Below, piece after piece: positions 149-46,740 of a stretch of DNA of 64,000 nucleotides. The DNA is taken from NCBI RefSeq assembly GCF_004010195.1, contig NC_057751.1, positions 6,414,699-6,478,698 on the forward strand, read 5' to 3'. The stretch is from Chiloscyllium plagiosum (taxonomy: Eukaryota). The notes beneath the pieces are model-generated. The model ran no database searches. It was given only the letters and a program-made list of their open reading frames with translations, and was not told the origin of the DNA. The translations under genes were made by a program, and so were the position numbers. The first letter of the stretch is position 1, and each line of letters begins with the position of its first letter.

Positions 149-316
149 TGATTTGGAGATGCTGGTGTTGGATTGGGGTGTACAAAGTTATAAATCACAC
201 AATGCTAGGTTATAGTTCATCGGTTTTATTTGGTAGCACTAGCTTTTAGAGCGCTGCTCCTTCATCAGGTTCCCAAATAAACCTGTTGGTCTATAACCTG
301 GTGTTGTGTGATTTTT
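149..316. mobile_element. Short hairpin-type insertion derived from a probable Penelope-like terminal repeat (family B)
   Basis: Long minus arm followed by an inverted partial plus arm (aaatcacacaatgctaggttatag / ctataacctggtgttgtgtgattt). Flanked by direct repeat AATAAAGATAAA at 137-148 and 317-328. Carries a degenerate hammerhead on the minus strand at 237-270. Confidence 0.7.
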
Positions 317-1896
317 AATAAAGATAAAGTTCACATAGAGTAAATTGGATTGACCTGTCACTTCAATAGATCATTATTCAGTGAGAAAACAAGTTGCTCA
401 TTGTCATGTTGGTGTTCTCCTTTATGCCGTGTTAAACTTGGAGATCTCAGGCAAATGTTACATATGAAGCATTGGATGGAGGCATGGTTCAAGACGTACT
501 TTGTCATGTGCTCACATGTCCCCGAAAGACCTGACACTGTTCTTCTCAAATGTTGGGTTGTCTTGATGACAGATACTTTGCTTTGCAGAGTTATTTGCAT
601 CCACATAACTGGATACAACTTACAGACTCTGAGACTGGCTTTCAAAATATCTTTATGTTTAATTTGGGACATTTTAAGGTGTGGGTTCCTATGCAATGCT
701 GGCTGGAGAACATTGCCTTCCAAATGCTGGAATCTTCCATACAAATCAGATGCTCGACCCAGTGAAGCTGAGCTCTGTCTCAGAATAAAGATCGTGTTCT
801 GACAGATCGCAGGTGTCATACCTCCTCTAACTGAATCTGAGGCATGGACAGCCTGCCAACTTCAATTAAAACAAATAGGTGAATTTCACCCTTTTCTCTT
901 GGCAAACATGAAGTAACAGGACAATATCCCTTCCATCCAAGTTCTTGCGAAGTGCAACATATCTTGAATCAAAAGCATGCATACAAAGAATGCAGGAAAT
1001 CCTTGTTGAATATTGTCAGATGTAGATTCAACATCACAAAATTATTGGGACCTAATATCTTGAGCATTATAAAATTCACTTCAATATTATTTACTGTACC
1101 TGACCCCCAATTAGTTACATTTGACATGACCCCTCTCACTTTCTAATTTGCGGACTCGCCTCATGCTGCTGCCTGCACAAGTGAGCACCCAACCACCAGT
1201 CACAGACCAACTGCTGGAGCTGTTGTCCGTCCCGGCTATCTGATAACATATTCTGGGAAAGACAGCAGTGACCATTGTCTCTGGCTGCCACCAATCCCAG
1301 TTCGCAACTGGACACAACACTTATCAGGTGTCTTTGGGTCCCCGGTCCTCCAATTTCAGTGGCCCAGTGGTCCAAATAAATGGAAGGATGCAGGGGAGAG
1401 CCCAAACTTCACCCAGACCCGAGCAGTCACCACCCTCCACCACAAACTTTTCTTCACTGAATCCCATCTCCCTTTCCCTACACAGAATGACAGAATTAAT
1501 AACTACCTTTTCACAGAGACTACCACACAGCACGAATCAGGCATCACCAAGTATTTGATTTGGCAGTAGAGAAAAAATATATAAGCATTTTCAAGGGACC
1601 ACTCAGGGATCAGTTCCAGTTCCACACCACCCATTGCTGCTTCTCAGCTTGTGACTCCACAATGTTGTCTTGAGGCTGCACTTGGGATTGTGACACAAAG
1701 AGTGGGATGCCTTGACCTGTAATGTAGAAGATGCACATAAATCACAGTGTTGCTTATGACTCAAAGTCATAGACTGTACATATTACATGACAGGTTATTT
1801 GCATTCCACATTGGATCACAGATTGTGCCTTGTTTGACAGGAAGATACAGATATTCCATTTCCAAGAAAAGACTTTAAGCATCGTCAGAAGTTCAT

Positions 1897-1968
1897 AGAA
1901 GAATACAGCGCAGTACATGCCCTTTGGCCCTCGATGTTGCGCCGATCCAAGCTCACCTAACCTATACT
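1897..1968 (-). mobile_element. Ultra-short CR1 LINE 3' end with 19-bp target-site duplication
   Basis: Matches the 3' end of the CR1 copy near 40560 (acagcgcag..ggccctcgatgttgcgccga). AGCATCGTCAGAAGTTCAT is repeated at 1878-1896 and 1969-1987. Confidence 0.75.
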
Positions 1969-2396
1969 AGCATCGTCAGAAGTTCATCCCGATGGAATGT
2001 CAAATTTTCCATTTTCCCATTTTAATACTTGAAAACTGTTGCGACCCCTCAATGAGAAGGAGAACACATTTTAGAGCAAAAAAATCGGGGTTCTGGTTTG
2101 TGGGGGTTTGCTGGGAGGTTGACCATTGCTATTTCCAGTGCATAAGCCACTTGGAGATTCCAATCTTTACTTTGAGCAACCTTTTTATAAGATGCGGCAG
2201 CATTTTGAACAGGTCAAATGCCTTATTTGCCCACAGTGATATTCCAAATAGTTATCATCATTTGAATTAATGATGACTGGCACTTCATATTTATCTTCAA
2301 AGGGATTTGGATAAATGTCTAAAGGATAAGAAATGCAGGGGCACTTGGAACAGTGCAGTGTCGGACTAGCTGAAGTTCTCTTCAAAATAGCTGGAT

Positions 2397-2516
2397 AGAC
2401 TGCAGATGCTGGAAATCAGAGTCAAAATGTGTGGTGCTGGAAAAGCATAGTTGGTCAGGCAGCATCCGAGGAGCAGGAGAATCGACGTTTCGAGTGTAAG
2501 CTCTCCATCAGGAATG
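2397..2516 (-). mobile_element. Penelope-like 3' terminal fragment (family A) with variant hammerhead
   Basis: Same sequence as the tail after the Penelope-like piece at 28130-28259. Minus strand reads ATTC-CTGATGG-AGAGC-TTAC-ACTC-GAAACGTC-GATT. Confidence 0.75.
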
Positions 2517-3421
2517 TCACAGATTGTCGGGTAGAATAGCCTCTTTCCTTGTTATATTATTCTATTGCAAAGTTTCTACACATTCAAGATACTTGGTTCT
2601 TCTGTCCTTTTTTAAATTTACCATTATTACTTGTCACTTGCATCTGTGGCATACTATAATAGAGTTAACCATGCTACGAGATGAGTAATTTAGAAGTCTG
2701 AACTCATGATTTGAAGTCACAGGTTCAAAACCAAAGGATTCAAATTCAATTCATTTCATAAATCTAGATTAAGAAGCTGGTGTCATGAACTATGAAATGA
2801 TTGTATTGTTGTAAAATCTCATCTGATTCATAAGTGTCTTTAAGGGAAGGAAGTCTGTTGTCTTTACTGATCTAGCCACACAATGTAACTTGACCCATAA
2901 ATGCCCTTCAAAATGCCCTTTAAAAAGCCATTCAATTGTATCAAAGAGGACAAATCATTGCCACTGAATCAAAAGCAATTAGGGAAGAGGAACAAATGTT
3001 GGTGACATCCAGCAAAGGTCTGTTTGAAAAAGAGCTTCTTTGTTTAATTTCAAGTAACATTCTGAACTTAGCTTGGATACTTTAAGTTAATAATTGACCC
3101 ATCTTTTGTCAGTTGCCATGCTTGTTACTTTCTTTCCAATTTGTAGGCTTCTCTGTGTCTTGTGCATAGTTCCCGCCTGTTATAGCATGATTACTCTTCT
3201 ACACAACCAATCATTTTTATTGTAGAAAAGTGCCCAGAACTGCAAACATCACATTTGATTGGATCAGTGCACCCATAAAACCAGAGCATCATCGTAAGAG
3301 ACTTGCAGGTTGAGAGCTTCAATTTGCTCCTGATGTGTCTTCTTGCCCATGTGGAGCATGTAACAGGAACTTGGGCACATACTTCCACCCATTAAAGCAT
3401 CATTTTGGCTCAGTTGGTAGT

Positions 3422-3614
3422 TGTTATGTATGTATGTAGTTGGTGTGTTGCCCCTTTAAGAGAGTGGGTCAGGTGACTTGGAGCGGGAGCGAGGCAAGAC
3501 AGTCTAGAAACTGACTGTGGAGCTGAGAGGACCCACAATAAAATATTCCCTGTTCAAGTTTACCTCCATCGACCTTGTCTTCTCCGCATCGGCCATGTGA
3601 ACCATCAACATAAC
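3422..3614 (+). repeat. Putative 5' LTR of the Gypsy element
   Basis: Starts TGTTATGT, ends ACATAAC (terminal inverted repeat), contains AATAAA near 3537, and is followed at 3615 by PBS-like TGGTGACAAG. Confidence 0.7.
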
Positions 3615-5338: not shown

Positions 5339-5581
5339 ATGACACAGAAGGGACTGTTCCACAACAAGCAACTTCCTTTTGGCATTATGTCAGCACTGGT
5401 TCTATTCCAGAGGGCCATGGACCAAACTTTGAGTGGATTTCCTGGTGTCCAGTGTTATCTGAATGACATTTTGGTTACTAGATCCTCCAAAGAGGAGCAT
5501 TCGAAAAACCTAGAAGAAACCCTAAAATGGTTTCAGGAGCGCGACCTACAAGTAAAAGGTGAGAAATGTGAGTTTTTTTGA
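5339..5581 (+). pseudogene. Gypsy reverse transcriptase fragment
   Basis: TQKGLF..LPFGIMSA..FQRAMD..YLNDILVT, with the catalytic YxDD decayed to YLND. Confidence 0.9.
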
Positions 5582-5836
5582 AGACACGATTGAGTACCAG
5601 GTTCATGTCATCACTGATGGGGGACTACACAAGGCATCCAAGAAGATGGAGGCTATCATGAAGGTCCCTAGACCAGAGAACGTGTCTCAACTGTGATCTT
5701 CGGACTTGCAAATTACTGTGTGATGTTCTGGCAACTGCGCTAAAACTCCTGCAACTGTTGCGGTAAAAGGGTAGCCATGGAAATGGACCCAGGAATGTGA
5801 GGAGGCTTACTAGGAGATGAGCAAGCTCTCAAACGT

Positions 5837-6097
5837 TTGGAAGTGTTGCCACTGCAGTTGACGTGTGATGCCTCACCTCTTGGGGTTGGCACTGTCCTAT
5901 CACACATCTTACTAAAAGGACAGGAGTGTACTATTGCGTTCGCATCGAGGTCAGTAACAAAGACAGAGGAGAAGTATGCCCAAGTGGAAATGGAAGGATT
6001 GAGCATTGTGTTTGGTGTAAAGAAATTAATCAATTTCCTTCATGCTGCTACAAACCGCAGGCCGCTAACGTCCACTTTACAGGAATATCCTCAATGA
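5837..6097 (+). pseudogene. Gypsy RNase H fragment
   Basis: LQLTCDASPLGVGTVLSH..IAFASRSVTKTEEKYAQVEMEGLSIVFGVKK. Confidence 0.9.
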
Positions 6098-6377: not shown

Positions 6378-6505
6378 CCCTGAAGAAGGGCTTTTGCCCG
6401 AAACGCGATTCTCCTGCTCCTCGGATGCTGCCTGGCCTGCTGCGCTTTTCCGGCACCACACATTTCAACTCTGGTCTCCAGCATCTGCAGTCCTCACTTT
6501 CTCCT
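6378..6505 (+). mobile_element. Penelope-like 3' tail (family A) nested in Gypsy pol
   Basis: cctgaagaagggcttttgcccgaaacgcg..cagcatctgcagtcctcactttctcct interrupts pol. Pol-like coding (LSISGECFMWGMRVVI) resumes after it. Confidence 0.8.
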
Positions 6506-6812
6506 AGTTGTCCATATCAGGGGAGTGTTTCATGTGGGGAATGAGAGTTGTTATCTGTCCTCCCCTTAAGAGGAAAGGTGCTGGAACAAGTGCGCCAAGG
6601 GCAGCCTGACGTGGTGCAAATGAAAGAAGTAGCCAGGAGCTACTTTTGATGGGCAAGGATGGACTCCCAGATTGGAAAGAAAGTAGGATCATGCAAATCT
6701 TGTGCATTATTTCAGAAAGTTATGCTGTTGTCGCACCTTCATGCATAGGAATGGCCTCAATCACCACGGCAGTGGATTCTTGTTGACTTTGCAAAACATG
6801 TAGAAGTCCTGG

Positions 6813-7172
6813 ATGCCCACAGTGGTGGTCAAGAAATCAGTATCAGCAGACACAATGATAGACCAACTGGGTGAAATGTTTGCCAGGTTCGGGAACCCTG
6901 AACAAGTTGTGAGTGACAATGATCCACAGCTTGTGGGACAAGAGTTCAAGGGGTACCTGGAAAATCATGGAATCAGACATGTGAACTTGGCTCCGTATCA
7001 CCTTGTGATAAACAGCCAAGCGGAGAGACTGTTACAAACCTTTAAGCAGGCCTTAAAGGCCCAACAAGGGGAAGATTCACCAGGACAGCGACTCAACAAG
7101 TTCCTCAGCATTTACAGGAACACAGCGTGTGCAATGACCCAGTGCTCGCCAGTGTCCTTCATGTATAACTGA
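6813..7172 (+). pseudogene. Gypsy integrase core fragment
   Basis: FARFGNPEQVVSDNDPQL..GIRHVNLAPYH..NSQAERLLQTFKQALK..YRNT. Confidence 0.9.
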
Positions 7173-9020: not shown

Positions 9021-9029
9021 TAAAAATGT

Positions 9030-9774: not shown

Positions 9775-10692
9775 GTTTGCAGATGATACAAAGATAGGTA
9801 GAGGGATAGGTAGCATTGAGGAGATGGGGAGGCTGCCAAAGGAATTAGGGAGTTAAGGAGAGTGGGCAAAGAAATGGCAGATGGAGTACAATGTGAGAAA
9901 GTGTGAGGTCATGCACTTCAGCAGGAAGAATAGAGGTATGGATTATTTTCTAAATGGGGAGAAAATTCAGAAGTCTGAAATGCAAAGAGACTTCGGTGTT
10001 CTAGTGCAGGTTGAGTCAGTCATTAGGAAGGCAGATGCAGTGATGACATTTGTTTTGAGAGGACTTGAATATAAAAGCAGGGATATACTTCTGAGGCTCT
10101 GGGAGGTTCTGGTCAGACCACATTCGGTGCGTTTTGCACAGTTTTGGGACCCATATCTCAGGAAGGATGTACGAGCCCTGGAGCGTGTTCAGAGAAGGTT
10201 CATGAAAATGGTCCCAGGAATGAAAAACTTAACAGAAATGGAATGTTTGAGGACTCTGGATCTATACTCGATGGAGTTTAGAAGGATGTGAGGGAGGATC
10301 TAATTGAAACATACAGAATACTAAATGGCCTGGACCGAGTGGACATTGTCAAGATGTTTCCACTGGTAGGAGAGAAGAGGATCCGAGAGCACAGCCTTAG
10401 AGAATAGGGGAGACCTTTTAGAATGGAGATAAGGAGAAACGTCTTTAGCCAGAGAATGGTGAATCTGTGGAATTCATTGCCACAGAAGGCTGTGGAGGTG
10501 AGTCTATTTAAGACTCACCTCCACCTATTTAAGTCATTGAATCTATTTAAGACTAAGATAGATAGCTTCTTGATTGTCAAGAGGATCAAGGTTTTGGGGG
10601 AAAAAGTGGAAGAATGGGGTTAAGAAACTTATCAATCATGATTCTATGGGCATAATGGCCTAACTTCTGCTCCGATGTCTTATGGTCTTATA
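9775..10692 (+). mobile_element. CR1 LINE 3' fragment (RT C-terminus plus 3' UTR)
   Basis: FADDTK, MEYNVRKCEVMHF, LVRPH, LERVQRRF, FSQRMVNLWNSLP, ending in a tcttatgg tail. Confidence 0.9.
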
Positions 10693-12030: not shown

Positions 12031-12182
12031 GCAAGTCAAAAAGCGTGGTGCTGGAAAAGCACAGCCAGTCAGGCAGAAACGTCAACTCTCCTGCTCCCCG
12101 GACGCTGCCTGACCAGCTGTGCTTTTCCAGCATCACACTTTTCGACTCTGATCTCCAGCATCTGCAGTCCTCACTTTCTCCT
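12031..12182. mobile_element. Hairpin-type Penelope-derived short insertion (family A)
   Basis: Short inverted arm plus a longer plus-strand tail beginning gaaacgtc. Flanked by AAAGTATTT at 12022-12030 and 12183-12191. Confidence 0.75.
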
Positions 12183-14360: not shown

Positions 14361-14498
14361 AGGTCAGAAGTCACACGACATCAGGTTATAGTCCAACAGG
14401 TTTATTTGAAATCATGTAAACCTGTTGGACTATAACCTGGTATCATGTGACTTCTGACCTTGTCCACCCCATTCCAACATCGGCATCTCCACATTTCA
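14361..14498. mobile_element. Hairpin-type insertion (family B)
   Basis: Near-perfect inverted arms of about 44 bp (14361-14404 / 14417-14460) followed by the family B tail gtccacccc..ggcatctccac. Confidence 0.75.
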
Positions 14499-14769: not shown

Positions 14770-14860
14770 TAAAGCGTGGCACTAGAAAAAGCACAATAGG
14801 TCAGGTAGCATCTGAGGAGCAAGAGAGGTGACGTTTCGGGCATAACGCTTCTTCAGGACT
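14770..14860 (-). mobile_element. Penelope-like tail fragment (family A) with hammerhead core
   Basis: Minus strand reads CTGAAGA-AGCGTTATGCCC-GAAACGTC, with stem II disrupted. Confidence 0.65.
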
Positions 14861-15479
14861 GAAGCTTTCATTCTTTGAACTACTTATTTTATTCATGAAC
14901 TATTGGATTTTTAACTGGAGACCACAGCTGTTTCATTGTATACTGTTTTCTCCAGTATGGAGTTCTCAGTAGTTCTCTCATTCCCAATTTGCAATTTGAT
15001 TGAGGGCTATTGTCTGAGATGTTGTAGGGGAACCAAGGAGAGAGAAAACATCTTTCAACCTTACTGTTTCCAATCCATTTCTCTCTTCTGCCCATAAGCA
15101 GAAAAATTGTTCAGCTAGCTCCATTATCTGGCTATTTTTCTTTGAATTTCCTGTGCACGTGTGGATTTAAACAGGAAGTGCAAATTTCTTGATGCTGACT
15201 CTGTTGCTTTGTTTCAATGCTTTTAGAAAAAAATGTTAACTTCAGTGCAATCAGTTTTGTTTTATTCGCATGGGTCTCATGAAACCAGTGACAGACGGTG
15301 GTCATGTGATCAATGCAACCATTTTAGGACTGCATTTTCTCCATTTTATAAACCATTTTAGTCTATGAACGATCTCAGGTTCACCTATCAGATGATGCAC
15401 GTTATCATTCTGTCATCCATATTTACCACTATTATAACAATAGTCAATGCCATGATGTTCTATCCTCGTCTCTGGTTTT

Positions 15480-20256: not shown

Positions 20257-20423
20257 GTCAAGAGTGTGGTGATGGAAAAGCACAACAGGTCAGGCAGCAT
20301 CCGAGGAGCAGGAGAACCAACGTTTCAGGCATAAGGCCTTCACAGCTGTCTGACCTGCTGCACATTTCCAGCACCACACTCTTGATTCTGATACTCCAGC
20401 ATCTGCAGTCCTCACTTTCTCCG
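20257..20423. mobile_element. Hairpin-type Penelope-derived short insertion (family A)
   Basis: Inverted arms with a truncated hammerhead at the turn. Flanked by ATTTGCATTTCTCT at 20243-20256 and 20424-20437. Confidence 0.8.
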
Positions 20424-22125: not shown

Positions 22126-22489
22126 GCAAAATCCAAATCTTCCTTTTTGATTTCTTACCCAGACACAGTAAATTACCACAATGATGAAATAATGGTCAAA
22201 TAATCATGTTTTTCAGTGATGTTGTTTGAGGGATAAATTGGAGAGGGAGACTGGATATGGGAATCTGTGATTCAGTAGGTTCAGGGTGAAGCTCAGGGGT
22301 GAAAGGAAGATAGTAAAGGGGCTGATATTAACAAGAGGAGATTGAGAAAGGACAGATGTTAAATTGGAGGAAAAAATACCATCAGCAGTTATGGGGTAAT
22401 GTATACACATAACAGGAAAAGGCAAAGGGTGAAAGAATCAAAATAAAAAAGTTTACCATAACCATCTCTCCCAACAGTATTTTCAAATT

Positions 22490-22680
22490 AAAAACAAATT
22501 ACTGCAGATGCTGGAATCTGAAACCAAAAGAGAAAAAATGCTGTAAATTCTCAGCAGGTCTGGCAGCATCTATAAGGAGAGAAAAGAGCTGACGTTTTGA
22601 GTCTAACTAACCCTTTGTCAAAGCTCTGACCAGCTGCCAGACCTGCTGAGATTTTCCAGCATTTTTTTCTCTTTTGGTTT
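22490..22680. mobile_element. Hairpin-type insertion (family C) with degenerate hammerhead
   Basis: Inverted arms of about 50 bp flanked by CAGTATTTTCAAATT at 22475-22489 and 22681-22695. Hammerhead-like motif on the minus strand at 22586-22626. Confidence 0.8.
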
Positions 22681-23387
22681 CAGTATTTTCAAATTGAGGG
22701 GTTATGACAATGTGTTAATATAAATGAGAAGGTCCAAGGTGGGTTTCCATGCATCGAGGCACATGAAATACACACCAAAAAGAAGCTATTGAGAGGACAA
22801 TCATCAAGTTGATAAACCAGTAACCCCATGCATCCTGGGCAAAGACAAAGTAAAAAAATAGATGAACAGGCTATTGAGAGACTGCATTATTTCAAGGTGG
22901 CAGCTCACCACCACCTTCTCAAGGACAACTGGGGACAGGCAATGAATGCTTCCCCAGCCAGCAATTCTCATGTTCCGTGAGTGAATTTAAAAAAAAAATT
23001 GATGAGGACAAACTCTCCAAAGTGAATGCGTACGTTCTTTTCTATGAACCTCAGAGAGCTGATGGGCCTGAATTTAACGTCTCGTCCAAAGCGCAGAATC
23101 TCTGCCAGTGTTGCACTCCTTTGGTTCACTTTTGGTTGCACTCTCCGACGTTCAGCATTTATTTTTTCTTGCACTCCATTGAAGAGGTTTGGTGACTGCA
23201 TCAGAATCCACGTTAGCCAAGACCTCATGGAATGACAGAATGTCCTTCAGCAGATCAAAGGTCTGTCCTGTTCACATTGTTCCATTAAGCCATGTCTATA
23301 ACAACATGGTATCAATTTCAAAGCAGCTTTGAAGCCTTTTATTTTAAAAAAACGTTGCATTCTTCAAATGAAATCTTGTCACGACAA

Positions 23388-26850: not shown

Positions 26851-27752
26851 GTTTCTATTATTAGCTGGTGTTTTATCCTCTTGTTTAGGCACTAAAGTAT
26901 TCTTATCAGGTGGAGAATGCACAGAACACAATAAACTCATCTACACTTTTCACATCATGTCTGGAAGACAGGAAAACCAGCCTTATTTCGTTGTTCCGCT
27001 GACAAATCAACTTGCATAACTATCCACATTTGAAGCAAATTGTACAGCAGACTCTAAGATGCTGAACTTAAAATCATTTACATTCAGCACAGACAGTATG
27101 TCTGAACTGAATAAGAGGTGTTAAAATGTATCAAAAATAAATTAATTGCCTTCAAAGTGAAATCAGCATCACAAAATGTTTATTGTGCTCGTAGAAGGAC
27201 CTGTTCACTTGTAGAAGCACCAGATGAGCAGAGCCTGACCCCACATTAGCAATTCTGGCACAAGTTTGGCATGCGGCTTCAAGGACAAAGGACTTTTATC
27301 TTGGACAAGCTCAATGATGAATTTCTAGAGCCCTCTTGAGTTGTGAACTCCATTGCTTTAGCACTCTCTGAATGAATAAATGCCTCTTTTACTTCAATTT
27401 TAATGTAATGTAATGATAAGGTCCGAGGGAGTGTTGCTGAACAAAGAGACCTTGGAGTGCAGGTTCATAGCTCCTTGAAAGTGGAGTCGCACGTAGATAG
27501 GATAGTGAAGAAGGTGTTTGCTATGCTTTCCTTGATTGGATAGAGCATTGAGATAAGGAGTTGGGAGGTAATGTTGCGACTGTACAGGACATTAGTTAGG
27601 CAACTTCTGGAATATTGTGTGCAATTCTCGTCTCCCTCCTATCAGAAAGATGTTGTGAAACTTGAAAGGGTTCAGAAAAGATTGACAAGAATGTTGCCAT
27701 GGTTGGAGAATTTGTGCTACAGGGAGAGGCTGAACAGGCTGGGGCTGTTTTC

Positions 27753-27946: not shown

Positions 27947-28259
27947 CCAACCCTCAGACTCAGCACCGCCTTCTTGACCTGCAATCTTCTTCCCGACCTC
28001 TCAGCCCCCACCCCCTCTCTGGCCTATCACCCTCACCGTAACCTCCTTACACCGATTGCATTCTCAATGCCCCTCCCCAAAGTCCCTCCTCCCTACCTTT
28101 TATCTTAGCCTGCATGGCACACCCTCCTCATTCCTGAAGAAGGGCTTATGCCCGAAACGTCGATTCTCCTTCTCCTTTGATGCTGCCTGACCTGCTGCGC
28201 TTTTCCAGCAACACATTTTTAAGCTCTGATCCCCAGCATCTGCAGTCCTCACCTTCTCC
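27947..28259 (+). mobile_element. Penelope-like element 3' terminal region
   Basis: Near-identical in reverse to the sequence following the GIY-YIG ORF at 32025-32480. Confidence 0.85.
28130..28165 (+). ncRNA. Minimal type I hammerhead ribozyme motif (intact core)
   Basis: ATTC-CTGAAGA-A-GGGC-TTAT-GCCC-GAAA-C-GTC-GATT: CUGANGA core, 4-bp stem II, GAAA and GUC triplet. Predicted cut after 28161. Confidence 0.75.
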
Positions 28260-28849: not shown

Positions 28850-28972
28850 CATAACCACCTGATGAAGGAGCAATATTAGTGCTTCCAATTATACCTGTTG
28901 AACCATAACCTGGTGTTGTTTGATTTTTAACTTTGTACACTCCAGTCCAACACCGACATCTCCAAATTATAA
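28850..28972 (+). mobile_element. Family B tail with internally deleted hammerhead
   Basis: ccacctgatgaaggagca..tagtgcttccaatt..ataacctggtgttg..atctccaaat. Confidence 0.7.
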
Positions 28973-30329: not shown

Positions 30330-30532
30330 CAAAAGCAGAAGTTGCTGGAAAATCTCAGCAGATCTGACAGCGTCTGTGAAGAGAAATCAAAGTAAATGTT
30401 TCGGGTCCAGTGACACTTCTGGGGACATCAATTTCTCTTCACAGATGCTGCTAGATCTGCTGAGCTTTTCCAGCAACTTCTGGTTTTGTTTCTGATTAAC
30501 AGCATCTGCAGTTCTTTCAGTTTTTGCTTTTA
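30330..30532. mobile_element. Hairpin-type insertion (family C-like)
   Basis: Inverted arms gttgctggaaaatctcagcagatct / agatctgctgagcttttccagcaac. Flanked by GCCAGTATTTAAA at 30317-30329 and 30533-30545. Confidence 0.75.
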
Positions 30533-30586: not shown

Positions 30587-31426
30587 GAGGATCCATTTCC
30601 GCTACCTACAGTCAGATCCCACCACCAGAGATATATTTCTCTTCCCACCCCTTTCAGCATTCCACAGAGACCATTCCCTCCGTGACACCCCCCCCGCCCG
30701 CCTCCCAGAAAAAACACACCCTCCGCTCCTAGCATCTTCCCTTGCCACCGCAAGAGGTGTAAACCCTGTTCCCTCACCTCCCTGTCACTTCCATCCAAGG
30801 CCACAAAGGATCCTTCCACATCTGGCAGAGATTCTCCTGCACCTTCAAACACCTCATCTACTATATCCTTTGCTCTTGATGTGGTCTCCTCTACATTGGG
30901 GAGACAGGGCTCCAACTTGTGGAACATTTCAGAGAACAACTCCGGGACACATGCACCAATCAATCACCTGTGGCTGAACACTTCAACTCCCCCTCCCACT
31001 CCGTCAAGGACATGCCTCCTTGGTTCTTGGCCTCCTCCATGGCTAAGTGCAAGCCATCTGACACCTGGAGGAAGAATGCCTCATCTTCCGCTTTGGGACC
31101 CTCGAACCACATCAGATTAATGTCGATTTCACCAGTTTCCTCATCTCCCCTCCCCCCACTTTATTCAAGATCCAACCCTCCAACTTGGCACCGTCCTCTT
31201 GAACTGTCCTACCTGTCCATCTTCCTTCCCATCTATCCACTCCACCCTCCACTCTGACCTATCACCATCAAACCCCCACCACGTACATCTACCTACTGCA
31301 CTCCGAGTTACCTTCCCCCCAGTCCCACCTTTTCCCATTTATCTCTCAGCCAGCTTGCCTCCCCCCGTGGCATTCCTGATGAAGGGCTTATACGCGAAAC
31401 ATCGACTCTTCTGTTCCTCAGATGCA
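30587..31426 (+). mobile_element. Penelope-like element fragment (GIY-YIG endonuclease plus tail)
   Basis: FPCHRKRCKPC, LIYYILCS*CGLLYIGETG, EHFREQL..PVAEHFNSPSHS. Decayed hammerhead cctgatgaagggcttatacgcgaaacatc at about 31375-31403. Confidence 0.88.
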
Positions 31427-32024
31427 CTTAAAACACTGCTGTACTCCCTTCAAAACTAGAATGGATTGTCTGCCTTGATTTTGCACTCAAGCCTGAATGT
31501 GGGTCTTGAACCAAGAATCTTATGACTCAGAAGAGAGAGGCTACAAATTGAGCCATTGGACAAACATTTGATAGAATGCTTTCTGATTGCAGCAAATGTA
31601 GACATCGTGAAACATTTGTCAACAGTATCAAGAGCAATATCAATTAGCATTGTTAGGGAAATATTCAAAATGATTGGATGTACTAGGTTGAAGCAGTATG
31701 TGAAATATCTAAAATGACAGGAGAGAGCATCACAGCTGCAAAATTCAAGTGATTAAATCTAGACAAGAAATGTCTTGACAATGGAGTTTGCTGGCTACTG
31801 CATTCAGTTCCAGACTTGGTGGTGGAAGCAGGAACTATTGATTGACTTTGACTAGAAATCAGCTAATCGTAGTTTCAGGGAGGGTTTCTCTTTCCTGGTG
31901 AGCTATCTTCTTAAACATGCCTTAGTACCTATGCTCCATGCTCATATGACACCCCACTTGTCACAGGTAGAAGCACTGGCTAACACCAAAAACTCACATA
32001 TTTCCTGGCTTTGGTATCATCTTT

Positions 32025-33002
32025 AAAGCTGAAAATGTGTTATTGGAAAAGCGCAGCAGGTCAGGCAGCATCCAAGGAACAGGAGAATCGACGTTTCGGG
32101 CATAAGCCCTTCTTCAGGAATGAGGAAAGTGTGTCCAGCAGGCTAAGATAAAAGGTAGGGAGGAGGGACTTGGGGGAGGGGCGTTGGAAATGCGATAGGT
32201 GGAAGGAGGTCAAGGTGAGGGTGATAGGCTGGAGTGGGGTGGGGGCGGAGAGGTCAGGAAGAAGATTGCAGGAGTTCATCTCTTGTGGTTGGAGGGTTCC
32301 TAGGCGGAAGATGAGGCGCTCTTCCTCCAGCCGTCGTGTTGCTATGGTCTGAGGCTAAGATAAAAGGTAGGGAGGAGGGACTTGGAGGAGGGGCGTCGGA
32401 AATGTGATAGGTGGAAAGAGGTCAAGGTGAGGGTGATAGGTCAGACTGGGGTGGGGGCGGAGAGGTCAGGAAGAAGATTGCAGGTAAGGAAGGCGGTGCT
32501 GAGACATGGTGGGGGGAGGGGAAATGAGGAAACTGGTGAAATCTGAGTTCATCCCTTGTGGTTGGAGTGTTCCTAGGCGGAAGATGAGGCGCTCTTCCTC
32601 CAGCCGTCGTGTTGCTATGGTCTGGCGATGGAGGAGTCCAAGGACCTGCATGTCCTTGGTGGAGTGGGAGGGGGAGTTGAAGTGTTGAGCCACGGGGTGG
32701 TTGGGTTGGTTGGTCCAGGTGTCCCAGACGTGTTCTCTGAAACATTCTGCAAGTAGGCAGCCTGTCTCCCCAATATCGAGGAGGCCACATCGGGTGCAGC
32801 GGATGCAATAAATGATGTATGTGGAGGTGCAGGTGAATTTGTGGCGGATATGGAAGTATCCCTTGAGGCCTTGGAGGGAAGTAAGGGGGGAGGTGTGGGT
32901 GCAAGTTTTGCATTTCTTGCGGTTGCAGGGGAAGGTGCCGGGAGTGGAGATTGGGTTGGTGGGGGGTGTGGACCTGACGAGGGAGTCACGGAGGGAGTGG
33001 TC
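32025..33002 (-). mobile_element. Penelope-like element fragment (probably Neptune-type) with partial tandem duplication
   Basis: FPCNRKKCKTC, then IIYCIRCTRCGLLDIGETG..VAQHFNSPSH..RRLEEERLIFRLGTLQPQGMNSDF, followed by the 3' repeat. Confidence 0.9.
32086..32121 (-). ncRNA. Minimal type I hammerhead ribozyme motif (intact core)
   Basis: Reverse complement is identical to 28130-28165. Confidence 0.75.
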
Positions 33003-33849
33003 TTTTAAACCTCATCTTTAAACCCCATCATATGTTCTCTAAAGCTCTAGCATTCTGCAACTGCCCTCACAGTTCCTGACAATTGCCCCAGACATGTTGG
33101 GCAGAAGGGCATTGGTCACCATTTTTACCAGTGGAGACCTGGAGAAACATGCAGTCGCTGCCCAAGGTGTGAGTTGAAGATGTTTATGATTGATGAAGGT
33201 TTAGAGAAGCAAGTGGCAAACTCGAGTCATTAGGTTTTGGCTGTGGCTTTCATGCCAATAATTGTCATTGTCTGGTTTGTACCTGATGGTTGGAAAAATG
33301 GGAGGCAGCATATCAATAAGGTGAAATTATGTCTTAATAAATGTTAATGCACATCAATGTACCCAAAGAGGCCTTAGACTGCACACTGGCGACTATCAGG
33401 ACTTAGCATACAAGACTTGGTTGGAAAATGGGACTTCTTGCTTACTAAGTGCAAAGCTCCTTTGCTGACTCTCTCTCACAATTCTCTCAACTTTCCCATC
33501 TTTGCTCACATCATTCAGGACCACGCTGTTTCACAGTTCAACAGTAGATTTAATTGGAATGCAGAAGGCGTAAAATGGATCTGGTGACAGAGTGGGGGAA
33601 TGTGATTCGGATTTTGTGTGCATGTGCAAGGCAAATGCTGGCATGAACTGGAAAGGCCAGTGGCGTCTCAATTGGTTACAACATCGGCATAAACTTCTGT
33701 GACCAGCAGTTAAATGTCCCCAGGCACTTTACTGGATGATAATCAGATACAATTTGCCACCAAGACAGAGGTAATTGTTCTGATGAAAGACCTGTTTATT
33801 TATACTGGTAGACCTGAATATTTTGAGCATTTCATGTTTATATTTAGGA

Positions 33850-35661: not shown

Positions 35662-35843
35662 AAAGTTAAGAGTGTGGCACTGGAAAAGCACAGCAGGAGA
35701 ATCAATGTTTTGGGCATTCCTGATGAAGGGCTGTTGCCCGAAGCATCGTTTTACCTGCTCGTCGGATGCTGCCTGACCTGCTGTGCTTTTCCAGTGCCAC
35801 ATTCTCCACTTTGATCTCCAGCATCTGCAGTCCTCACACTCTT
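35662..35843. mobile_element. Hairpin-type Penelope-derived insertion (family A) at the SINE tail
   Basis: Inverted arm, then attcctgatgaagggctgttgcccgaagcatcg and tail. ATAGCT occurs on both sides. Confidence 0.75.
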
Positions 35844-38800: not shown

Positions 38801-39252
38801 CAGGTCAGAAGTTTCTCTCCAAGGATATGAAAGCAATGATTGAATGTCTGCTTAGAAACAAAGCACAAGTCACCACTAAAGTTGAAAAGAATAGAAAAGT
38901 GGAAGAATCATTAAGTAGTATCACAAGTGTGGATTTTAAAAGGTCGAAGACTTGAGTCTTATTTTTGTGCTGAAACCCAGGAATTACTTGACAAATGGAA
39001 ACCATTTAAACATACGAGTTGGAAACTAATATTAATGAGGCTACTCAGAGAGAAATTTACTGCCCTAGACTGCTCATACTTGAACATCAAAGGATAAATA
39101 ATGTTTCAAGAAATTGCCAGCAAACTTTTTATTAACTGGCAGCGATGGGATAAGGAGAATGCCAGTTGACCAAATATTCCAGATAATCAAGAGGCACACA
39201 CAACCGAAGTAAATCCTGACCAAGCAAAGCTGCCACACATCAACATCTCTCA

Positions 39253-39427
39253 AAATATCAACGTAAAAACATAACCCACCTCCTAACATTATTGTAAAAA
39301 ATATAACCCACCTCCTAACATTAATGTAAAAACATAATCCACCTCCTAACATCAATGTAAAAACATAACCCATCTCCTAACATTAATGTAAAAATATCAC
39401 CCACCTCCTAAAATCAATGTAAAAACA
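39253..39427. repeat. Minisatellite, about 31-bp unit, about 5.5 copies
   Basis: Unit AACATYAATGTAAAAAYATAACCCACCTCCT. Confidence 0.9.
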
Positions 39428-40544
39428 CACAATAAATAATAGAAATGTAATGTGGCGGGTATATACATGGCTCTGTTATAGCATAAATACTTGGGCAAAG
39501 TGACGAAAATGGTATTTGAGATATTTTTGCTGGTTTGTCAGGAGTGCCACAAACAAAGTTTGCTGTACCATCACCTTGCACTGATTGTAGGTTCATGTGT
39601 GACTCACCAAGTCACTTGTCTTCCGAGTGCAGTATAGAATGCTTATTTTCAGCATATTTTATGTTCTATTTTCCCCGAAGAATGCACAGCATGTGAGATT
39701 GACAGAACCTTTGGGTCCGATAAAAAAATCAGTTCAACATAAAATGTCTGATGTCATGTAAAATTATTTGCCTAAATCACAGACTAAAACCTTAATTTTA
39801 GGTTGTCAACATTTCAACAAGACCTGTTTCTCATACCCACTTATCAATAGTACTTAAACTCAGCAGTGTGCATTAAGGCAAGACCTGGAGATTTAAACTT
39901 GTGTCACAAATGTTCCTATGCAAAGCTTCTCCGACCTGTGAAAAGTATGAAAGCATGTCATACTTTACCTTAGCTTGGAAAGTTTTTGGCCTTGGAAAAG
40001 TTGGTGACGTTTTGTCAATTTTTCAGTTCAGTAAAAATTTGGCAAATTTGTACTCTGACAAATCTGTAAATTGTCAGATGAAGGGGAAGTTCTAGCAACT
40101 GAGAAATCCCACAGCTTCAATGCTCAGAGAAAGAATCAAGTGTAGTCAGAAATGTTGCTGAGAGACTTCATCTCTGCACAGGTGATTCTGTTGATGATGT
40201 TGTAATCTCTGCAATCACATGTTGAAAACTCCAGTATGTTTAATTAGACACGGCAACTAGCGTAATTGACACAATGTTTGCATGCTTGATCCAGAAGAAA
40301 ACTCCAAATTCCCAGTAGCAGTACACAGTGGCAGGTTTAAACTCCTCCAGAAAAGGTTAGCCAACCAAGGGCTGTGATCTTGAGACATGAGCTGTAAGCA
40401 TTGAACTAAACAAAAGGTGTCAGTCAGTAGATGGCACGAGAATGTCTATTCAGTGTCATTCACCAGGTTATCAAAGCAGGAAGTGACCTTTATTTCAAGT
40501 GTTGGACACTGGGATATGCTTGGTGGATCTCAGTAGTAATTTTA

Positions 40545-40940: not shown

Positions 40941-43900
40941 GTATCCTTCAATATCCTTGGACAAGTTTTAGCTTAAGAGGCATAAGACATACACAACCTT
41001 GATGAAAACATTACGTTCCAGCCCAAGGCTCTGGTAGACTAAGCAACATAAATATGTCAACATTCTTTCCAGGCTAAAATGCAGATATCTTTTGATGCAC
41101 CTTGTGCTGTATTGATCAATTTATCATTCAAGTAATGTGGACGCAATAAAATCAAGACCTTCCCCAAGAATCAGTGTCATTGAAGAAATCCCGGGGCAGT
41201 GAAAGATGACAATAATTGCACTTCCTCAATGAAAGTCTTCTTGTCATGCTTTCATTATGTGAGGTTTAACTGTAATCCCACACTAATTCAAATATGCTTA
41301 ATTCAGCTGATCTGTAACTAATTTCTTTTCAACAAAAAAATCCCAACTTTGCTGTGTTATTTATGATCCATGTTGCTAATTTTAGATAGCTCAATGTTTT
41401 AAAGATTAGAATACATGGAATTGCATGCACCACTGATTAGTCTATTCCTGAAACTCAGAGCACAGATCGGCCTGTTTCATATCTGGCACTAGCCATAACT
41501 CAGCCATGGATTCATGAGCTCGCTTACTTTCTGATACTGTATTTTGAAAATTGGTCCATATTTTATCTGTTCACCTGAATACCTTTGTGTACACGGACAT
41601 GAAATCATTACCCTTTTCTGTACCTTTGTTTTTCTCACTCACTAAACAGTCAAGTTTGCCTGAGGGCTCAAAATCTTAAATTAGGTGATTAAAGATCTGG
41701 TGTTTTAGTTTAAATAAAACTCATGCTGCAATTTTCACAATAGGCACGCAATGTACATTTTCTTCTTCCATTACCACTTAAATGAACAAGTAATGAATGT
41801 TTATTTATTAGACCTGGAGTTGGTGTTTAACAGTGAGCTTACAAAATGTAATCTACGTTATTTTGGATTCGAGCAATAATGCAGCTTTAAGTAGGTTGAT
41901 TTATATATTGCCATTTCATGATAATTAGGGTCATGCTGTCCTGAAGGCTTTCCATTTGGCATTCTGCTGCTTGTGTACATATATCATTTTCATTACATCT
42001 TTGCACTGATAGGTATGGTTACACACCATTAGCTACAAAGGAATCGAAAATATAATTCAATGGGCTGCATTCACTGCAAATGTACAAGATTAACTCTGAA
42101 GAATCAGTGACTTTATCAGGAAGGGGTGAAGGAGAGAAATCCCAACCAGTATACTTGAAGAAGGACTGATACGGTTTCCTTTCACTGCTACTTTAAATGA
42201 GATTCCCATCAGTTTATTAGTAAAATGGTAAAACTCTTAAAAAAGCAAACACAAAATCTGACACACAAGAACATAATAGGATACTGAGTTGGCCTTGTGG
42301 CCTCATATGTTTGCTCTGCCATTTATTAAGCTCATGGGTAATATTTTATCTCAATTTTGCATTCTAGCACAATTTTGATATCCTTTGTGTCTAAAAGTCT
42401 ACCACTCTCCATCTTGAATGTAGACAACAGCTGATCATCCATAACTGTCAGGGGGAATGAATTCCACAAAGTCACAATCACTTGACTGAAGGAATTTTAC
42501 CTCATCTGAGTCTTACGTATAACAAAAAAACCAACTGAAGTGTAATTGATGGAAAGTCAACTGCTCGTACAGTACTTTTGCTCACAAATACACCAACTTT
42601 GCTCAGTACTTTGCAACCATGACCAACATTGTACATGTAAGTAGTTCCAATACGAGACACATTTCTAACTATTACATTGTTGTTGAACTAACAGGAAAGT
42701 ATTTTGTACAAGTACGATCATTTCACAGAGTTTGCTCTGAAGTATATAATTTGTTGAGTGAAAATGTTCAATGTTTTTGTTTTTCTTAAGCTTGTGTGTT
42801 CCTTTCCATTTTTAAGTTGCAATTCATCTGGTCCAGATCAAAAGGACTTAGATTCAGTTCCTACATCTTTCTTTTCTTGAAATGAAGCTCAAGAAAGAAT
42901 AAATAAACACGGTAAAGAACTTGAGCAATGAAACCGAAAATTATTGTTTTCACTGAGACCAATCCTTGGTAAACTGGGATTTGCCATCCTGCCTATAACT
43001 GACGCAGATCTGTAAACCAAGGGTCAGTGCCCTGAAAGTGATGTTTGATTTCCTATAAGTAGGGATTAGCAGTCAAAGAGATTACAGGGAAGCTTTGGAA
43101 ATTCTTCAGGCACTGAACAGTCTTTAAAAGCCACATTAGGGATATTTGACTTGACATCTTGCAACTGTAATGAGCAAGGCAGAAGCAAAATCAAGTTCAA
43201 AGCTGGATGCCTGTCCTTCAGTGTCACAGCAGAATGTTTGTTTTTCTCTCTCAGTTTTGCAAGTAAATACTATTAAGAATTCTAATCATGACGACAAAGA
43301 AATTTCATAAAATGTTCCTTTTCCTTGTACACACATAGTCTGGCATAATGGCAGAACCCAGTTACAATTCCTCAGTGCTATTTAAGCAGAAACTAATCTA
43401 CAATAGAAAAAGGTTCTGTGATATTAACATTATGATGTGAATTACAATTGACTTTGACATTCACTTGACCTCAGCAAAAATGTTATTTCTTAACTTCCTT
43501 GCTGAATTGGTTTCTGAAAAATCTTCAGAGTACAATTTTTCATTTCATACGTCTCCTGAAGAGTTAATATGTGCTTACAAACCTTTATCCTGATTCAGAA
43601 ATACAAGTTGGAAGTGACATTTATACAGGAAAAGTTGTCAAGGACGAAAGAAGATGGCATTAGCAGCCTTTTGCTGAGGGATATTTGCTGACCAGGCCAT
43701 CTGGAGGATTTTCATGCTTTGTTTTGTTAGTGAGCTCTTTTATTTTCCATTTGAAAAAGCAATTAGAGCTTTGGTTTAACAATTCATTTGCAAACCTAAG
43801 AATTGCATTGGTACATTCACACTGGTACATCCTGGTATGGAATTTTGATCATGAGGACAATCTTAGAAACTGAAAATCTCCCACTCTAATCAAGTGAATA

Positions 43901-44262
43901 ATTACATCTGTTTGTCTGGAATGGATACAAAGTGGAAATTTAGTGTGAGCTATATCGAGAGCGGGAGTGCTGCAATATTTAGGGGATTTTCACTCTTGGT
44001 GGTCTTTAGAGATCAGGGATGCATTTGGTGAACAGGGGAGACAATTTGCCTTCAGCCATTCCCACACAACATGAGTATCTTTATCATGTCACACATGGTG
44101 CATGAGAAGTGACGCAATGACACTTGCAGTTCATCACAGAATATTTTGTGATTTTTAAGCAGCAAGTTATGATTCCAGAGCTCCTTTGCAGTGTAGAGCC
44201 CCCCACCCCACTCCACCCGCCCCCCCCCCAACTTGAATCTGTAGCATTTTATCTCCAGTGGA

Positions 44263-44408
44263 AGAAAGTGAGGACTGCAGATGCTGGAGATCAGAGTCAA
44301 AAAATGTGGCGCTGGAAAAGCACAGCAGGTCAGGCAGCATCCGAGGAGCAGGAGATTCAACGTTCATCAGGAATGTGCTGTGCTTTTCCAGCACCACACT
44401 TTTTGACT
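44263..44408. mobile_element. Hairpin-type Penelope-derived insertion (family A)
   Basis: Minus-strand tail plus inverted tgctgtgcttttccagcaccacactttttgact. The hammerhead is internally deleted (aacgttcatcaggaat). Confidence 0.75.
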
Positions 44409-44599
44409 TATATCTTTAGTAAGATCATGGCTTTTTAAATAATAGGTTTGAAGATTCTTCATGAAGCCTCACAGAGGTTAAAATCAAAAGTGTATGTGAG
44501 ACTTAATGTTCTATAGAACTGTGAAGATGAAGAAGAAAGATGGGGAAAAGAGAGAGCTAAAGATACAAAGAAAAATGGGAATAGATCAAAAATCAAAAA

Positions 44600-44880
44600 G
44601 ATGCTGAAGATTTGAAAACGGATGTTGCCAGATATGGAAGGTTTGAGTTATAAAGAAAAGTTGGAGTGTAAGTGTTGAGAGGCAACCTGACAGAAGTTTC
44701 TAAAGTTAAGAGAGTTATCGTTGGAGTTAATGGAAAAAGGGATTTAGTTAGGTACATGAATAGGAAAGATTTGGAAGGATATTGGCCAGGAACAGGCAAT
44801 ACTTTCATTTGGGATGACATTCATCACAGACTGGTTGGACCGAAAGGTGTGTTTCCGTGCTGTATGTACATATGGCTCTG
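44600..44880 (+). mobile_element. Deleted CR1 3' fragment
   Basis: LRGNLTEVSK..RYMNRKDLEGY and tail. Confidence 0.7.
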
Positions 44881-46584
44881 AAGAATACACAGAGAAACAG
44901 AGTGATTGTTTCAGGTCTATTACCTTTCCCAAATCATGTCTGAAGGGAGCTGATTTTACACCATTCTCTTTGAGCAACTGTTCCAATTGTAAGGAGGTGC
45001 CAGTTTTCTACTTGCAATACGAAATACATCTCTTTCACTTTCAATTAGCAACAAGTATTGCAGTGTCACTTCAACTGTACAAGAAAAACCTGCAGCTGTC
45101 ATTCATTACTCCCTCTGACATTTAACAAGAAAACCCAGTACTCCTTCAGTTTGGGAGCCTTTTACATATATTAAGACAATTGAATGCCACAAGTCAGTGG
45201 CACATTGGTGAAACACATTTTGCATAAGAAATACTTAATCAAGAGGCAAGATGTTGAGAGAGTTAAGCACATTTTCATGAGAGTTGGTTCAGGTTAACTT
45301 GAAATATCAATTGAGTGGCTTGTGCATCAGCCCAACTCGACCTCTGATAACAAAGTACTCGACTTATTGACAAGCCAAGTAAAAGCACCATTGAATCACC
45401 AATAAACTCTCGGCAAGGTAATTTTTCAACCTTAATACAGTATTGGTTGTTGAAATGAAGGGGAAAAAACATGCATAGCTCAAAGGCTGCAAAATCATCA
45501 TTGTTATTTGTTGTTACATGTGAGACCACACAGGGATTTCAATTTTTATTTGAAGAGAGAGCCTTCCTAGTCTGTGTAATTAGTTTAGCTATGTTGCTCA
45601 CTTCACAATGAGGAAATACAAACTTACAGTGAAGAACATGTTGCTCAACTTAACCTTGCACAATTGAATGTGAGAAACTTGCAGAATCAATAGGTATGAG
45701 AAAAATATGACAAACAAAATAAATGCTCTCACTTCTTCGATTGGAACTGCACAAACTCAAAACAATGAACAGCGTTATGATTGTTTTATTGAGATTCAGT
45801 TGAAATGACAAAATTCACAGAAGCTCTACCTTTAATTGACATTTGTTTGATATTTTTCCATTGCATTGGCTTTGATATAACTGGCTGTGTTTCACCAAAT
45901 GAAATTACTGTATTTTAAGATGCGCTTTTCAGAAAGCTTCAATTCTTTCATCATGTGAGAAAGAGGCAATTATTACCTCATAGGAACAGGGTTATTAAAA
46001 AAAATGATGCTTTTAAACTGTTGTAAAATAATACAAAAAAGTGCTCCAAAACTTAAGTCTTGCCTTTCAGTTACTTTTGCCTTTCAGTTACTTTTGCCTT
46101 CCACACTGTATCATTTAGTGTTTCCTTTATTGGAGTTCAGACTTTCAGAATTAAAATGTAAATTGACACTGATTTTCATTTGTTTCCACTTTCCTATCTC
46201 ATCTTCCTTTTCAATAACTTTCTAACAGTCTCCTATTTCACTGCATCTTTGGTCGCCTCAACGTAACTACTCCTGCTTTGCCTGCTCAGTATCATACAAT
46301 TTGTTCTAAGTAATCTTACAGCCTTTTATTTTGTTAAAGAGGCTGCAAAAATGCAAGGAAGATGAGACCATATTTTGATCTTATGTCTGTCCTGTGCAAA
46401 TGCTGTGCAGAATAGCAGCTGCCAGGAAATTGCTGATGAATGGATTTACTTTTTAAAATGTGTTTTTTTCAAAACATACGTACAGAAGCATTTGCATGAC
46501 TTTCAGGTCATGGATAGGCTGACCGTAGTTAACCTAAATGTAACTGAAAGGAGTTGAGAAGTTGAAGCTGTCTGTCTTGCACTC

Positions 46585-46740
46585 ATGATGTGGAGGTGCT
46601 AGTGTTGGACTGGGTGGACAAACTTAAAAATCACACAACACCAGGTTATAATCAAACAGGTTTATTTGAAAGTACAAGCTTTCGGAGCACTGCTCCTTTG
46701 TCAGGCAGCTAGTGGGCTGGATCATAGGACACAAAATTTA
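46585..46740 (-). mobile_element. Family B tail with hammerhead motif
   Basis: Minus strand reads TGC-CTGACAA-A-GGAG-CAGTG-CTCC-GAAAGCTT-GTA at 46673-46707. Confidence 0.7.

Follow-up and report, generated by a model that had tools for sequence, protein, structure and literature searches.

What are the short, hammerhead-like repeats scattered along the 64-kb window (64,000 nucleotides of Chiloscyllium plagiosum contig NC_057751.1, all of which was analyzed here), and does selection act on their RNA fold? The first-pass annotation had described three distinct families sharing one hammerhead architecture with covarying stems, and had proposed selection on RNA structure and on dimer formation.

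Identity of the repeats

We consider it likely (probability about 0.85) that families A, B, and C are the 3′ ends (pseudo-LTRs, pLTRs) of endonuclease-bearing Penelope-like retrotransposons, mostly 5′-truncated stubs, each with a minimal type-I hammerhead. This kind was already described in 2014 as the min-HHR of Penelope-like elements (PMC4209133), a point that the annotation had missed; since the kind is known, the window reveals no new mechanism. The CUGANGA core, followed by one unpaired base before stem II, was present in A, B, and C′ (the sister family of C), with a U3-A8 variant in C. Stem II opened with G10.1-C11.1 and was followed by GAAA (pairing probability 0.87-1.00 in five natural copies). 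The loop-less stem III, which precedes H17, switched as claimed from ACGU (A, C, and C′) to AGCU (B) while staying palindromic. Stem I was short, with 2 bp in A, 3 bp in B, and 4 bp in C and C′. Inverted arms and a target-site duplication, typical of Penelope-like elements, were found, and in both A and B the putative terminal repeat lies downstream of RT and GIY-YIG ORF remnants. The three families are not independent, as A and C share a homologous tail.

A profile search located 17 loci in the window where a head is wholly or partly preserved (11 A-type, 3 C-type, and 3 B-type); the earlier figure of about a dozen motif remnants was, if anything, low. By the pattern that was used genome-wide, the core was intact in 4 of these 17. 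An Rfam covariance-model scan of the window returned no hammerhead among 9 matches (E up to 5), and its microRNA matches corresponded to inverted-arm hairpins of the stubs. The perfect-core descriptor matched twice in the window and not once in each of 10 Markov-2 simulations; relaxed descriptors yield chance matches (0-3 per simulation), and a descriptor lacking the extra base after A9 gave 0 motifs.

Family A

The proposed family A motif, CUGAAGA-A-GGGC/GCCC-GAA-ACGU-C, was borne out. It is intact at 28134-28161 (+), within a family A end at 28118-28230 (+), and at 32090-32117 (-), within the end of a young element at 32023-33011 (-) that comprises a GIY-YIG-type ORF (32466-33011), 3′ UTR, the min-HHR, and tail. 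Family A, the youngest and commonest family, has only 2 contiguous pairs in stem I, a feature absent from the annotation. An older A-type element end at 30722-31425 (+) carries a broken GIY-YIG remnant (30722-31163) and a head at 31376-31403 with intact core and ACAU. The remaining A-type loci are stubs with various lesions: 2423-2516 (-) has the stem II variant GAG/CUC and core change A9G, 6379-6473 (+) has lost U16.1, and 14780-14863 (-) has an intact core (14830-14856) and a damaged stem II. The stub at 12073-12152 (+) consists of GAAACGUC and tail only, with an inverted arm; inverted arms also accompany the stubs at 20261-20341 (-), whose head is decayed, and 35664-35815 (+), whose head (35715-35746) carries A15.1G. 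Stem II is deleted at 44299-44384 (-), and the stub at 63928-63999 (-) is cut by the window edge.

The ORF at 32466-33011 contains a CxxxxCxxC linker before GIY-YIG, and it aligned with the C-terminus of an RT + GIY-YIG protein at 39% identity over 155 aa. At another locus (L082), RVT_1 lay upstream of family A. Pfam recognized none of the three endonuclease ORFs of the window directly, also in a repeat run, and a search of solved structures with the window endonuclease ORF gave 0 matches. No RNA is listed on record as carrying family A. Single-cell poly(A) reads from one of 2 raw runs, labelled as a species with related copies, mapped to both strands of family A without an end pile-up, although cuts are not visible in a library that was fragmented.

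Family B

Family B was confirmed at 240-268 (-), within a 5′-truncated stub at 149-270 (-) that has an inverted arm at 250-318 on the plus strand, and at 46676-46704 (-), within an element end at 46586-46738 (-). Both heads have a 5-bp stem II (GGAGC/GCUCC) and GAA-AGCU-H. The claim that B and C copies carry core mutations, often at CpG sites, held for these two B heads: each has one core lesion, G12A (accompanied by C11.1U) and G8A, respectively, both by CpG decay. In contrast, the copy reported at 28857 (28859-28882, +) does not keep the hammerhead architecture, since GAA-AGC and the stem II 3′ strand are deleted from this stub of the CAC/GUG subfamily (28852-28967, +). The two stem I forms, CAC/GUG and UGC/GUA, are real subfamilies.

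In a hand count of the first 100 of 1,941 family B copies, C3 was present in 88, G8 in 86, and G12 in 74; the 11.1-12 dinucleotide was CG in 38, TG in 36, and CA in 23 of the same number. Fully intact heads number 13,708 genome-wide. Judged from the copies, the source core of family B is intact and the copies decay at CpG. Covariation within B was also sought at 2.3:1.3 (C-G 89, U-G 7, U-A 2, and C.A 2 in the first 100 of 13,708), but it was not significant because the search pattern lets 3/4 combinations pair. The link of family B to an ORF rests on 2/30 loci: in L028, same-strand RT and GIY-YIG remnants lie ~530 nt upstream of the head, and in L016 these remnants are inverted relative to it. 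The linker before GIY-YIG is degenerate in both.

Family C and its sister C′

The family C insertion spans 22490-22680 (-) and consists of an inverted tail arm followed by a forward stub that starts at the stem I AGCU (22622-22625). It is flanked by a 15-bp target-site duplication, with the upstream copy at 22681-22695 (-) and the other at 22475-22489. At its head (22591-22621, -), the proposed stem II (GGGUY/GACUC) and ACGU-C were correct, whereas the 5-bp stem I GAGCU/AGCUC was not: stem I is best described as AGCU/AGCU, because AGCU abuts the core upstream in 25/30 copies and the fifth G is present in 15/30. One fold suggested an 11-bp stem I, an artefact of the inverted arm; folds were recomputed with 5-nt flanks. 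Two further C-type loci are decayed, a C′ stub with an inverted arm at 30335-30418 (-) and an old C-related stub with a heavily decayed head at 55437-55503 (-).

U3 and A8 had been taken for damage to this copy, yet they are the family state, and the sole copy-specific lesion is G12A. Among the first 100 of 1,739 family C copies, U3-A8 was found in 98, C3.A8 in 1, U3.G8 in 1, and C3-G8 in 0; among the first 100 of 1,030 copies of C′, C3 was found in 90, G8 in 86, and U3 together with A8 in 1. The family-wide U3-A8 rules out CpG decay as the source of the UUGACAA core. These family-anchored counts were used instead of a genome search for U3-A8, which gave 3,714 matches vs 2,108 in the reversed-pattern control, a high background because the reversed pattern contains no CpG. 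Family C copies are stubs of ~135 nt whose tail is related to that of A; the family is young (about 3% divergence), and a search of 30 loci, selected for their similarity to a short inverted copy, found no contiguous ORF. We infer that the family is non-autonomous, made up of stubs, and derives from a source in which U3-A8 had replaced C3-G8 and become fixed. The annotation had named a consensus lacking CUGANGA as evidence against its reading; the family C consensus does lack it, but the reading survives because U3-A8 preserves the 3:8 pair.

The tails of C and C′ align with each other. Five paired positions differ between the two heads, and pairing is kept at all five: from C′ to C, 3:8 changed from C-G to U-A, 2.2:1.2 from U-A to C-G, and one stem II pair from G-C to G-U. 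The remaining changes are at N7, loop II, and H17, and no fixed change was found at U4, G5, A6, A9, G12-A14, A15.1, or U16.1.

Selection on structure

These differences support the proposed selection on RNA structure in source elements, and the close sister families make a better case for it than the three distant families do. The informative covariation consists of single events between families. At the sequence level, the changes between sister families are compensatory, and the decay of individual copies at CpG is neutral; families covary while copies decay because selection would act on a few source elements only, leaving the copies to decay. That a family as young and successful as C carries a compensated change at the catalytic 3:8 pair is an argument for selection of the active fold.

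Alternatively, the ribozyme of this non-autonomous stub could be dead, and the two transitions behind U3-A8 could have reached fixation by hitch-hiking, free of selection. Both changes are indeed transitions, a C at N7 would place G8 in a hypermutable CpG, no ORF is tied to family C, and the event is a single one. However, C also differs from C′ in another, independently compensated pair (in stem I) and in a stem II change that leaves pairing intact, no change between them breaks a pair, and family C has the best predicted dimer, so we regard hitch-hiking as unlikely. An equally unlikely explanation is that the fold serves the ribonucleoprotein as a landmark for protein binding or reverse transcription and is retained for that reason, with cleavage incidental to transposition. 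In an Anolis element, cleavage required protein and was not required for in vitro insertion, which catalytic mutations left unchanged, and none of the RNA-seq reads had its end at the cut site. The stubs described here start where stem I starts on its 5′ side (4-5 nt ahead of the core) and not at the cut site, and a stem I of just 2 bp did not keep family A from massive amplification. A mere landmark fits less well with the 3:8 pair, a feature of the active core that C kept by a double change, or with the core positions listed above that are free of fixed changes. The C/C′ pair is thus a natural experiment on the importance of hammerhead catalysis to Penelope-like transposition, and it supplies ready-made constructs for a rescue test.

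Genome-wide load

Intact-core motifs numbered 227,323 in 3.56 Gb (918 in the reversed-pattern control), a density that rests on counts of a pattern covering the core only. The window held 4 vs 4.1 expected, and these counts support the very large ribozyme-derived load that had been predicted for the case of a typical window. S-S occurred at 15.2/16.2 in 165,198 of the 227,323 motifs, and of the first 100 of these S-S motifs 98 had ACGU or AGCU. That the motifs are chance matches in repeats is exceedingly improbable given this excess over the control, the family structure, and the Penelope-like context, even though Rfam detects no hammerhead and relaxed descriptors do match by chance. Printed counts are about 4,000 for coelacanth and 9,000 for Xenopus with a stem-enforcing descriptor (PMC4209133) and 126,247 canonical motifs for axolotl; the ~227,000 motifs exceed the printed counts for the other animals compared, with descriptors that differ.

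Dimer model and palindrome

Selection on dimer formation, the published model, is plausible by analogy with known Penelope-like elements. A single motif without loop III would be unable to fold an active core. Two motifs, on tandem pLTRs of one transcript or on two RNAs, would pair via the 4-nt palindrome and exchange strands of stem I, forming a double hammerhead that cuts after H17, probably aided by the element's own protein. The predicted gain of the double hammerhead over stem-II-only monomers, in secondary structure only, was +2.5 kcal/mol for A x A, +0.3 for B1 x B1, -0.5 for C′ x C′, -3.3 for B2 x B2, and -5.7 for C x C. It is weakest for family A, and other pairings outcompete it; published min-HHR activity is likewise low even as dimers (PMC4209133).

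Weak dimer energies, protein-dependent cleavage in Anolis, and the single palindrome switch (n=1) would fit a ribozyme that works without a partner RNA, as a protein-chaperoned monomer, its palindrome reflecting descent and a 15.2-16.2 pairing habit. We consider such a monomer improbable: a 4-nt stem III without a loop cannot close in one strand, a schistosome motif cleaved as a dimer and not as a single motif (PMC4209133), palindromes persist across about 56 published examples, and the first 100 of 4,609 motifs with a non-palindromic stem III included no amplified family of that kind.

A cross of ACGU with AGCU motifs does not isolate the palindrome, because stem I is intermolecular in the double hammerhead. 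Mixed pairs were predicted at about +13.5 kcal/mol for A x B and +3.6 for C x C′, and A x C and B x C were predicted to be unable to close both 1.1:2.1 pairs, though A and C share ACGU. A literature search on hammerhead heterodimers found none. We offer as a speculation, more doubtful than any of the above except chance matches, that stem I together with the 4-nt palindrome may act as a pairing code specific to each lineage. In a genome with ~200,000 motifs, many of them transcribed from both strands as part of host RNAs, selection against cross-cutting would have made these codes diverge, and family C would be a vertebrate non-autonomous element kept catalytically active via its compensated core pair. 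Each co-resident Penelope-like lineage would then form double hammerheads with its own members exclusively.

Comparison with known systems

The families share the consensus of the published min-HHR (extra base after A9, G10.1-C11.1, GAAA-NN-UH palindrome, and short stem I), and in both cases a genome holds several covarying families with mostly solo, truncated copies (PMC4209133). The entries of its Fig. S3 that were compared include ACGU, AGCU, and AUAU forms, with AGCU in at least five, one from a turtle, and no cartilaginous fish; a literature search found no report of Penelope hammerheads in sharks. The Penelope-associated variants of Lunse, Weinberg and Breaker 2016/2017 (RNA Biol 14:1499), which cleave as dimers according to PMC6765202, are also described as having a short palindromic stem III. 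In its C-terminal GIY-YIG with a CX2-5CxxC linker, family A resembles the Neptune clade (Craig et al. 2021, PMC8557442), as do the elements in general in their 5′ truncation, inverted arms, and tail; the family B linker, degenerate in two copies, departs from it. Non-LTR retrozymes (PMC7229834; 10.64898/2026.07.22.740005) resemble the stubs in being non-coding, pLTR-related, and type-I hammerhead-bearing. However, they form tandem arrays with canonical stems, whereas the stubs carry minimal motifs and are dispersed or head-to-head, and no tandem array of hammerhead units was found in the window or the loci.

Natural U3-A8 hammerheads were reported by Perreault et al. 2011 (PMC3088659) and in Schistosoma Cercyon elements, which account for about 1,300 schistosome motifs (PMC4209133); published reports describe such cores as active in vitro, and a literature search found none in a vertebrate. 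In Cercyon and in family C alike, C3-G8 is replaced by U3-A8 with the pair kept. Unlike Cercyon, family C belongs to a vertebrate, is young and putatively non-autonomous, and shares its genome with a sister whose core is canonical.

Hammerhead motifs in the window and in the genome

The window lies on contig C42 of a 3.56 Gb genome that is poor in CpG (observed/expected 0.27) and dense in interspersed repeats; its repeat types suggest a cartilaginous fish. A descriptor of the minimal type I hammerhead (min-HHR; the head of the repeats studied here) with one extra base after A9 matched perfectly at 28134–28161(+) and 32090–32117(−), with 0 matches in 10/10 simulations. When one core mismatch was allowed, the family B copies at 240–268(−) and 46676–46704(−) were added, for a total of 4 versus 0–1 per simulation; the hammerheads of the first-pass annotation are therefore real. 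An exception is its copy at 28857, which does not show the hammerhead architecture: its stem II has lost the 3′ strand, and GAA-AGC is missing as well. Profile searches (30 loci per family) located at least part of the head at 17 window loci, namely 11 A-type, 3 C-type and 3 B-type. The division into three distinct families held for B, whose flank is unrelated, whereas the tail (the sequence 3′ of the head) is homologous between families A and C. A head-to-head pair of the B-related tail, without any hammerhead, was observed at 14362–14494, and a tandem array of 31-bp units at 39234–39451. The ORF fragments at 9857–10291, 27544–27750 and 51459–52016 look like the C-terminal reverse transcriptase (RT) region of what we take to be CR1-type LINEs; the last sits inside a 275-nt, 98% inverted repeat (51377–51651/52046–52320). 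The fragment at 6804–7172 resembles, we assume, an LTR-retroelement integrase.

The pattern CUGANGAH-G-N(9-22)-C-GAAANNUH, which enforces no stems, matched the genome 227,323 times and the reversed control 918 times. The window holds 4 of these matches compared to 4.1 expected and is thus typical, which supports the very large ribozyme-derived load suggested earlier. S-S was present within the palindrome in 165,198 matches (control, 219), the first 100 of which carried ACGU (86), AGCU (12) or another sequence (2) by hand count. Among the 4,609 matches with purine-D at this site, the first 100 resembled mutated copies of the same families and included no AAUU family. Of the first 100 motifs with an intact core, 7 belonged to a fourth family (e.g., contig C1, 545601–545634) in which stem-loop II spans 18 nt and the extra base is U; this family is absent from the window. 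An A-type variant with stem II GAGC/GCUC in place of GGGC/GCCC, a compensated G-C to A-U change, was found at window 2485–2516 and at C1:604815 and C1:2971216.

Element context and insertion ends

Family A is young: its best 30 copies were 96–100% identical to the window copy, and the median divergence from the consensus was 2.7%. Its head in the window is preceded by an ORF (32466–33011(−)) that aligns along 155 residues, at 39% identity, with the C-terminal end of an RT + GIY-YIG protein of 924 residues. This ORF contains a CxxxxCxxC linker, the type that marks Neptune and Nematis elements (PMC8557442), and RVT_1 was detected upstream of the family A end at another locus (L082). Sequencing depth of family A drops sharply at 32121 in reads and contigs (window 32118–32122). 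Family B is older (10% divergence), and its link to ORF remnants comes from 2/30 loci: L028, with RT and GIY-YIG remnants ~530 nt upstream of the head on the same strand, and L016, with an inverted RT/GIY-YIG piece. Families A and B thus have a Penelope-like context. Truncation, inverted arms and tails have all been described for Penelope-like insertions (PMC8557442).

Family C (3.0% divergence) is a stub of ~135 nt with an inverted copy of the tail as an arm in front of it; no ORF tied to it was found at 30 loci. The window copy is flanked by a 15-bp target-site duplication. In 25/30 copies the stub starts with an AGCU that immediately precedes the core (window 22622–22625; loci L031–L060), and the inverted arm extends up to this AGCU in 6 of those 25. 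The two strands of stem I, being complementary to each other, provide microhomology for the inverted arm (6/30 copies). In families A and C the stub 5′ ends fall where stem I begins on its 5′ side, 4–5 nt before the core, and not at the cut site.

Core sequences of families B and C

In one B subfamily, the first 100 of 1,941 copies retained C3 in 88, G8 in 86 and G12 in 74 (hand count), so the source core was canonical. The 11.1-12 dinucleotide of these copies was CG in 38, TG in 36, CA in 23 and other in 3, which bears out the proposed CpG decay of the core. The loop CpG kept its C in 42/93 C/T cases. Its rate of decay is thus similar to that of the core CpGs, which is what copies free of selection would be expected to show. 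Fully intact B heads numbered 13,708, most with CAC/GUG as stem I. In B copies with A17 (L075 and L024), the palindrome, cut site and 3′ strand of stem I are predicted to form a local monomer hairpin, which would block the active form.

A search for the family C core with positions 3, 7 and 8 left open gave 233 matches, and 95 of the first 100 read UUGACAA. A shorter anchor gave, in the first 100 of 1,739 copies, U3-A8 in 98, C3·A8 in 1, U3·G8 in 1 and C3-G8 in 0, with G12 kept in 78. The window copy had been considered mutated in its core; U3 and A8 are the family state, and the copy is therefore damaged only at G12 (G12A). A sister family, C′, was found in the locus flanks and aligns with C along the tail; the first 100 of its 1,030 copies had C3 in 90, G8 in 86 and U3 with A8 in 1. 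C and C′ differ at five paired positions, and pairing is kept at all five. The changed pairs are 3:8, 2.2:1.2 (U-A versus C-G) and one in stem II (G-C versus G-U); outside these pairs, the two families differ at N7, in loop II and at H17. These changes are the best evidence here for the proposed selection on RNA structure, albeit from a single lineage comparison in which both core changes are transitions.

Dimer formation

In a double hammerhead, stem III and stem I both pair between two motifs. Nearest-neighbour energies (kcal/mol) were calculated on natural copies, each taken with 5 nt of flank, as differences from monomers with stem II only and ignoring tertiary contacts. Like × like dimers gave +2.5 (A), +0.3 (B1), −3.3 (B2), −5.7 (C) and −0.5 (C′), so that the weakest predicted dimer is that of the commonest family. 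Cross-dimers gave +13.5 to +13.8 for A × B and +3.6 for C × C′, and both 1.1:2.1 pairs cannot close in A × C, A × C′, B × C or B × C′. Incompatibility is therefore predicted even among families sharing ACGU. Since stem I is also intermolecular, the ACGU × AGCU cross suggested previously would not isolate the palindrome.

Unconstrained folds favoured pairings other than the double hammerhead. Together with the weak A dimer, this fits low activity or protein help, and counts against strong selection on RNA-only dimers. We suggest that two motifs of a tandem transcript form a double hammerhead that is cut after H17, probably with protein assistance. Alternatively, the fold may serve as a landmark for a protein or for reverse transcription. 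PMC11167929 reports both protein-assisted cleavage with 3:8 rescue and insertion in vitro without need of cleavage.

Comparison with known hammerheads

Our literature search found no report of shark min-HHRs, although Lunse et al. may list such motifs or heterodimer tests. It also found no vertebrate U3-A8 family; the supplements of bioRxiv 10.64898/2026.07.22.740005 cover one cartilaginous fish. This preprint, PMC6765202, PMC6155905 and PMC7229834 are further related sources. The min-HHR was defined in PMC4209133, which describes its consensus families as "full of covariations", the 15.2-16.2 positions as palindromic (ACGU, AGCU and AUAU among those listed) and the activity of dimers as low; the motif, the between-family covariation and the ACGU/AGCU palindromes are the same here. 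The compensated core of family C is the sole fresh detail, the rest being of a known kind and typical of the genome. U3-A8 hammerheads occur naturally, with in vitro activity cited (PMC3088659), and the U3-A8 of family C matches the variant carried by schistosome elements (PMC4209133).
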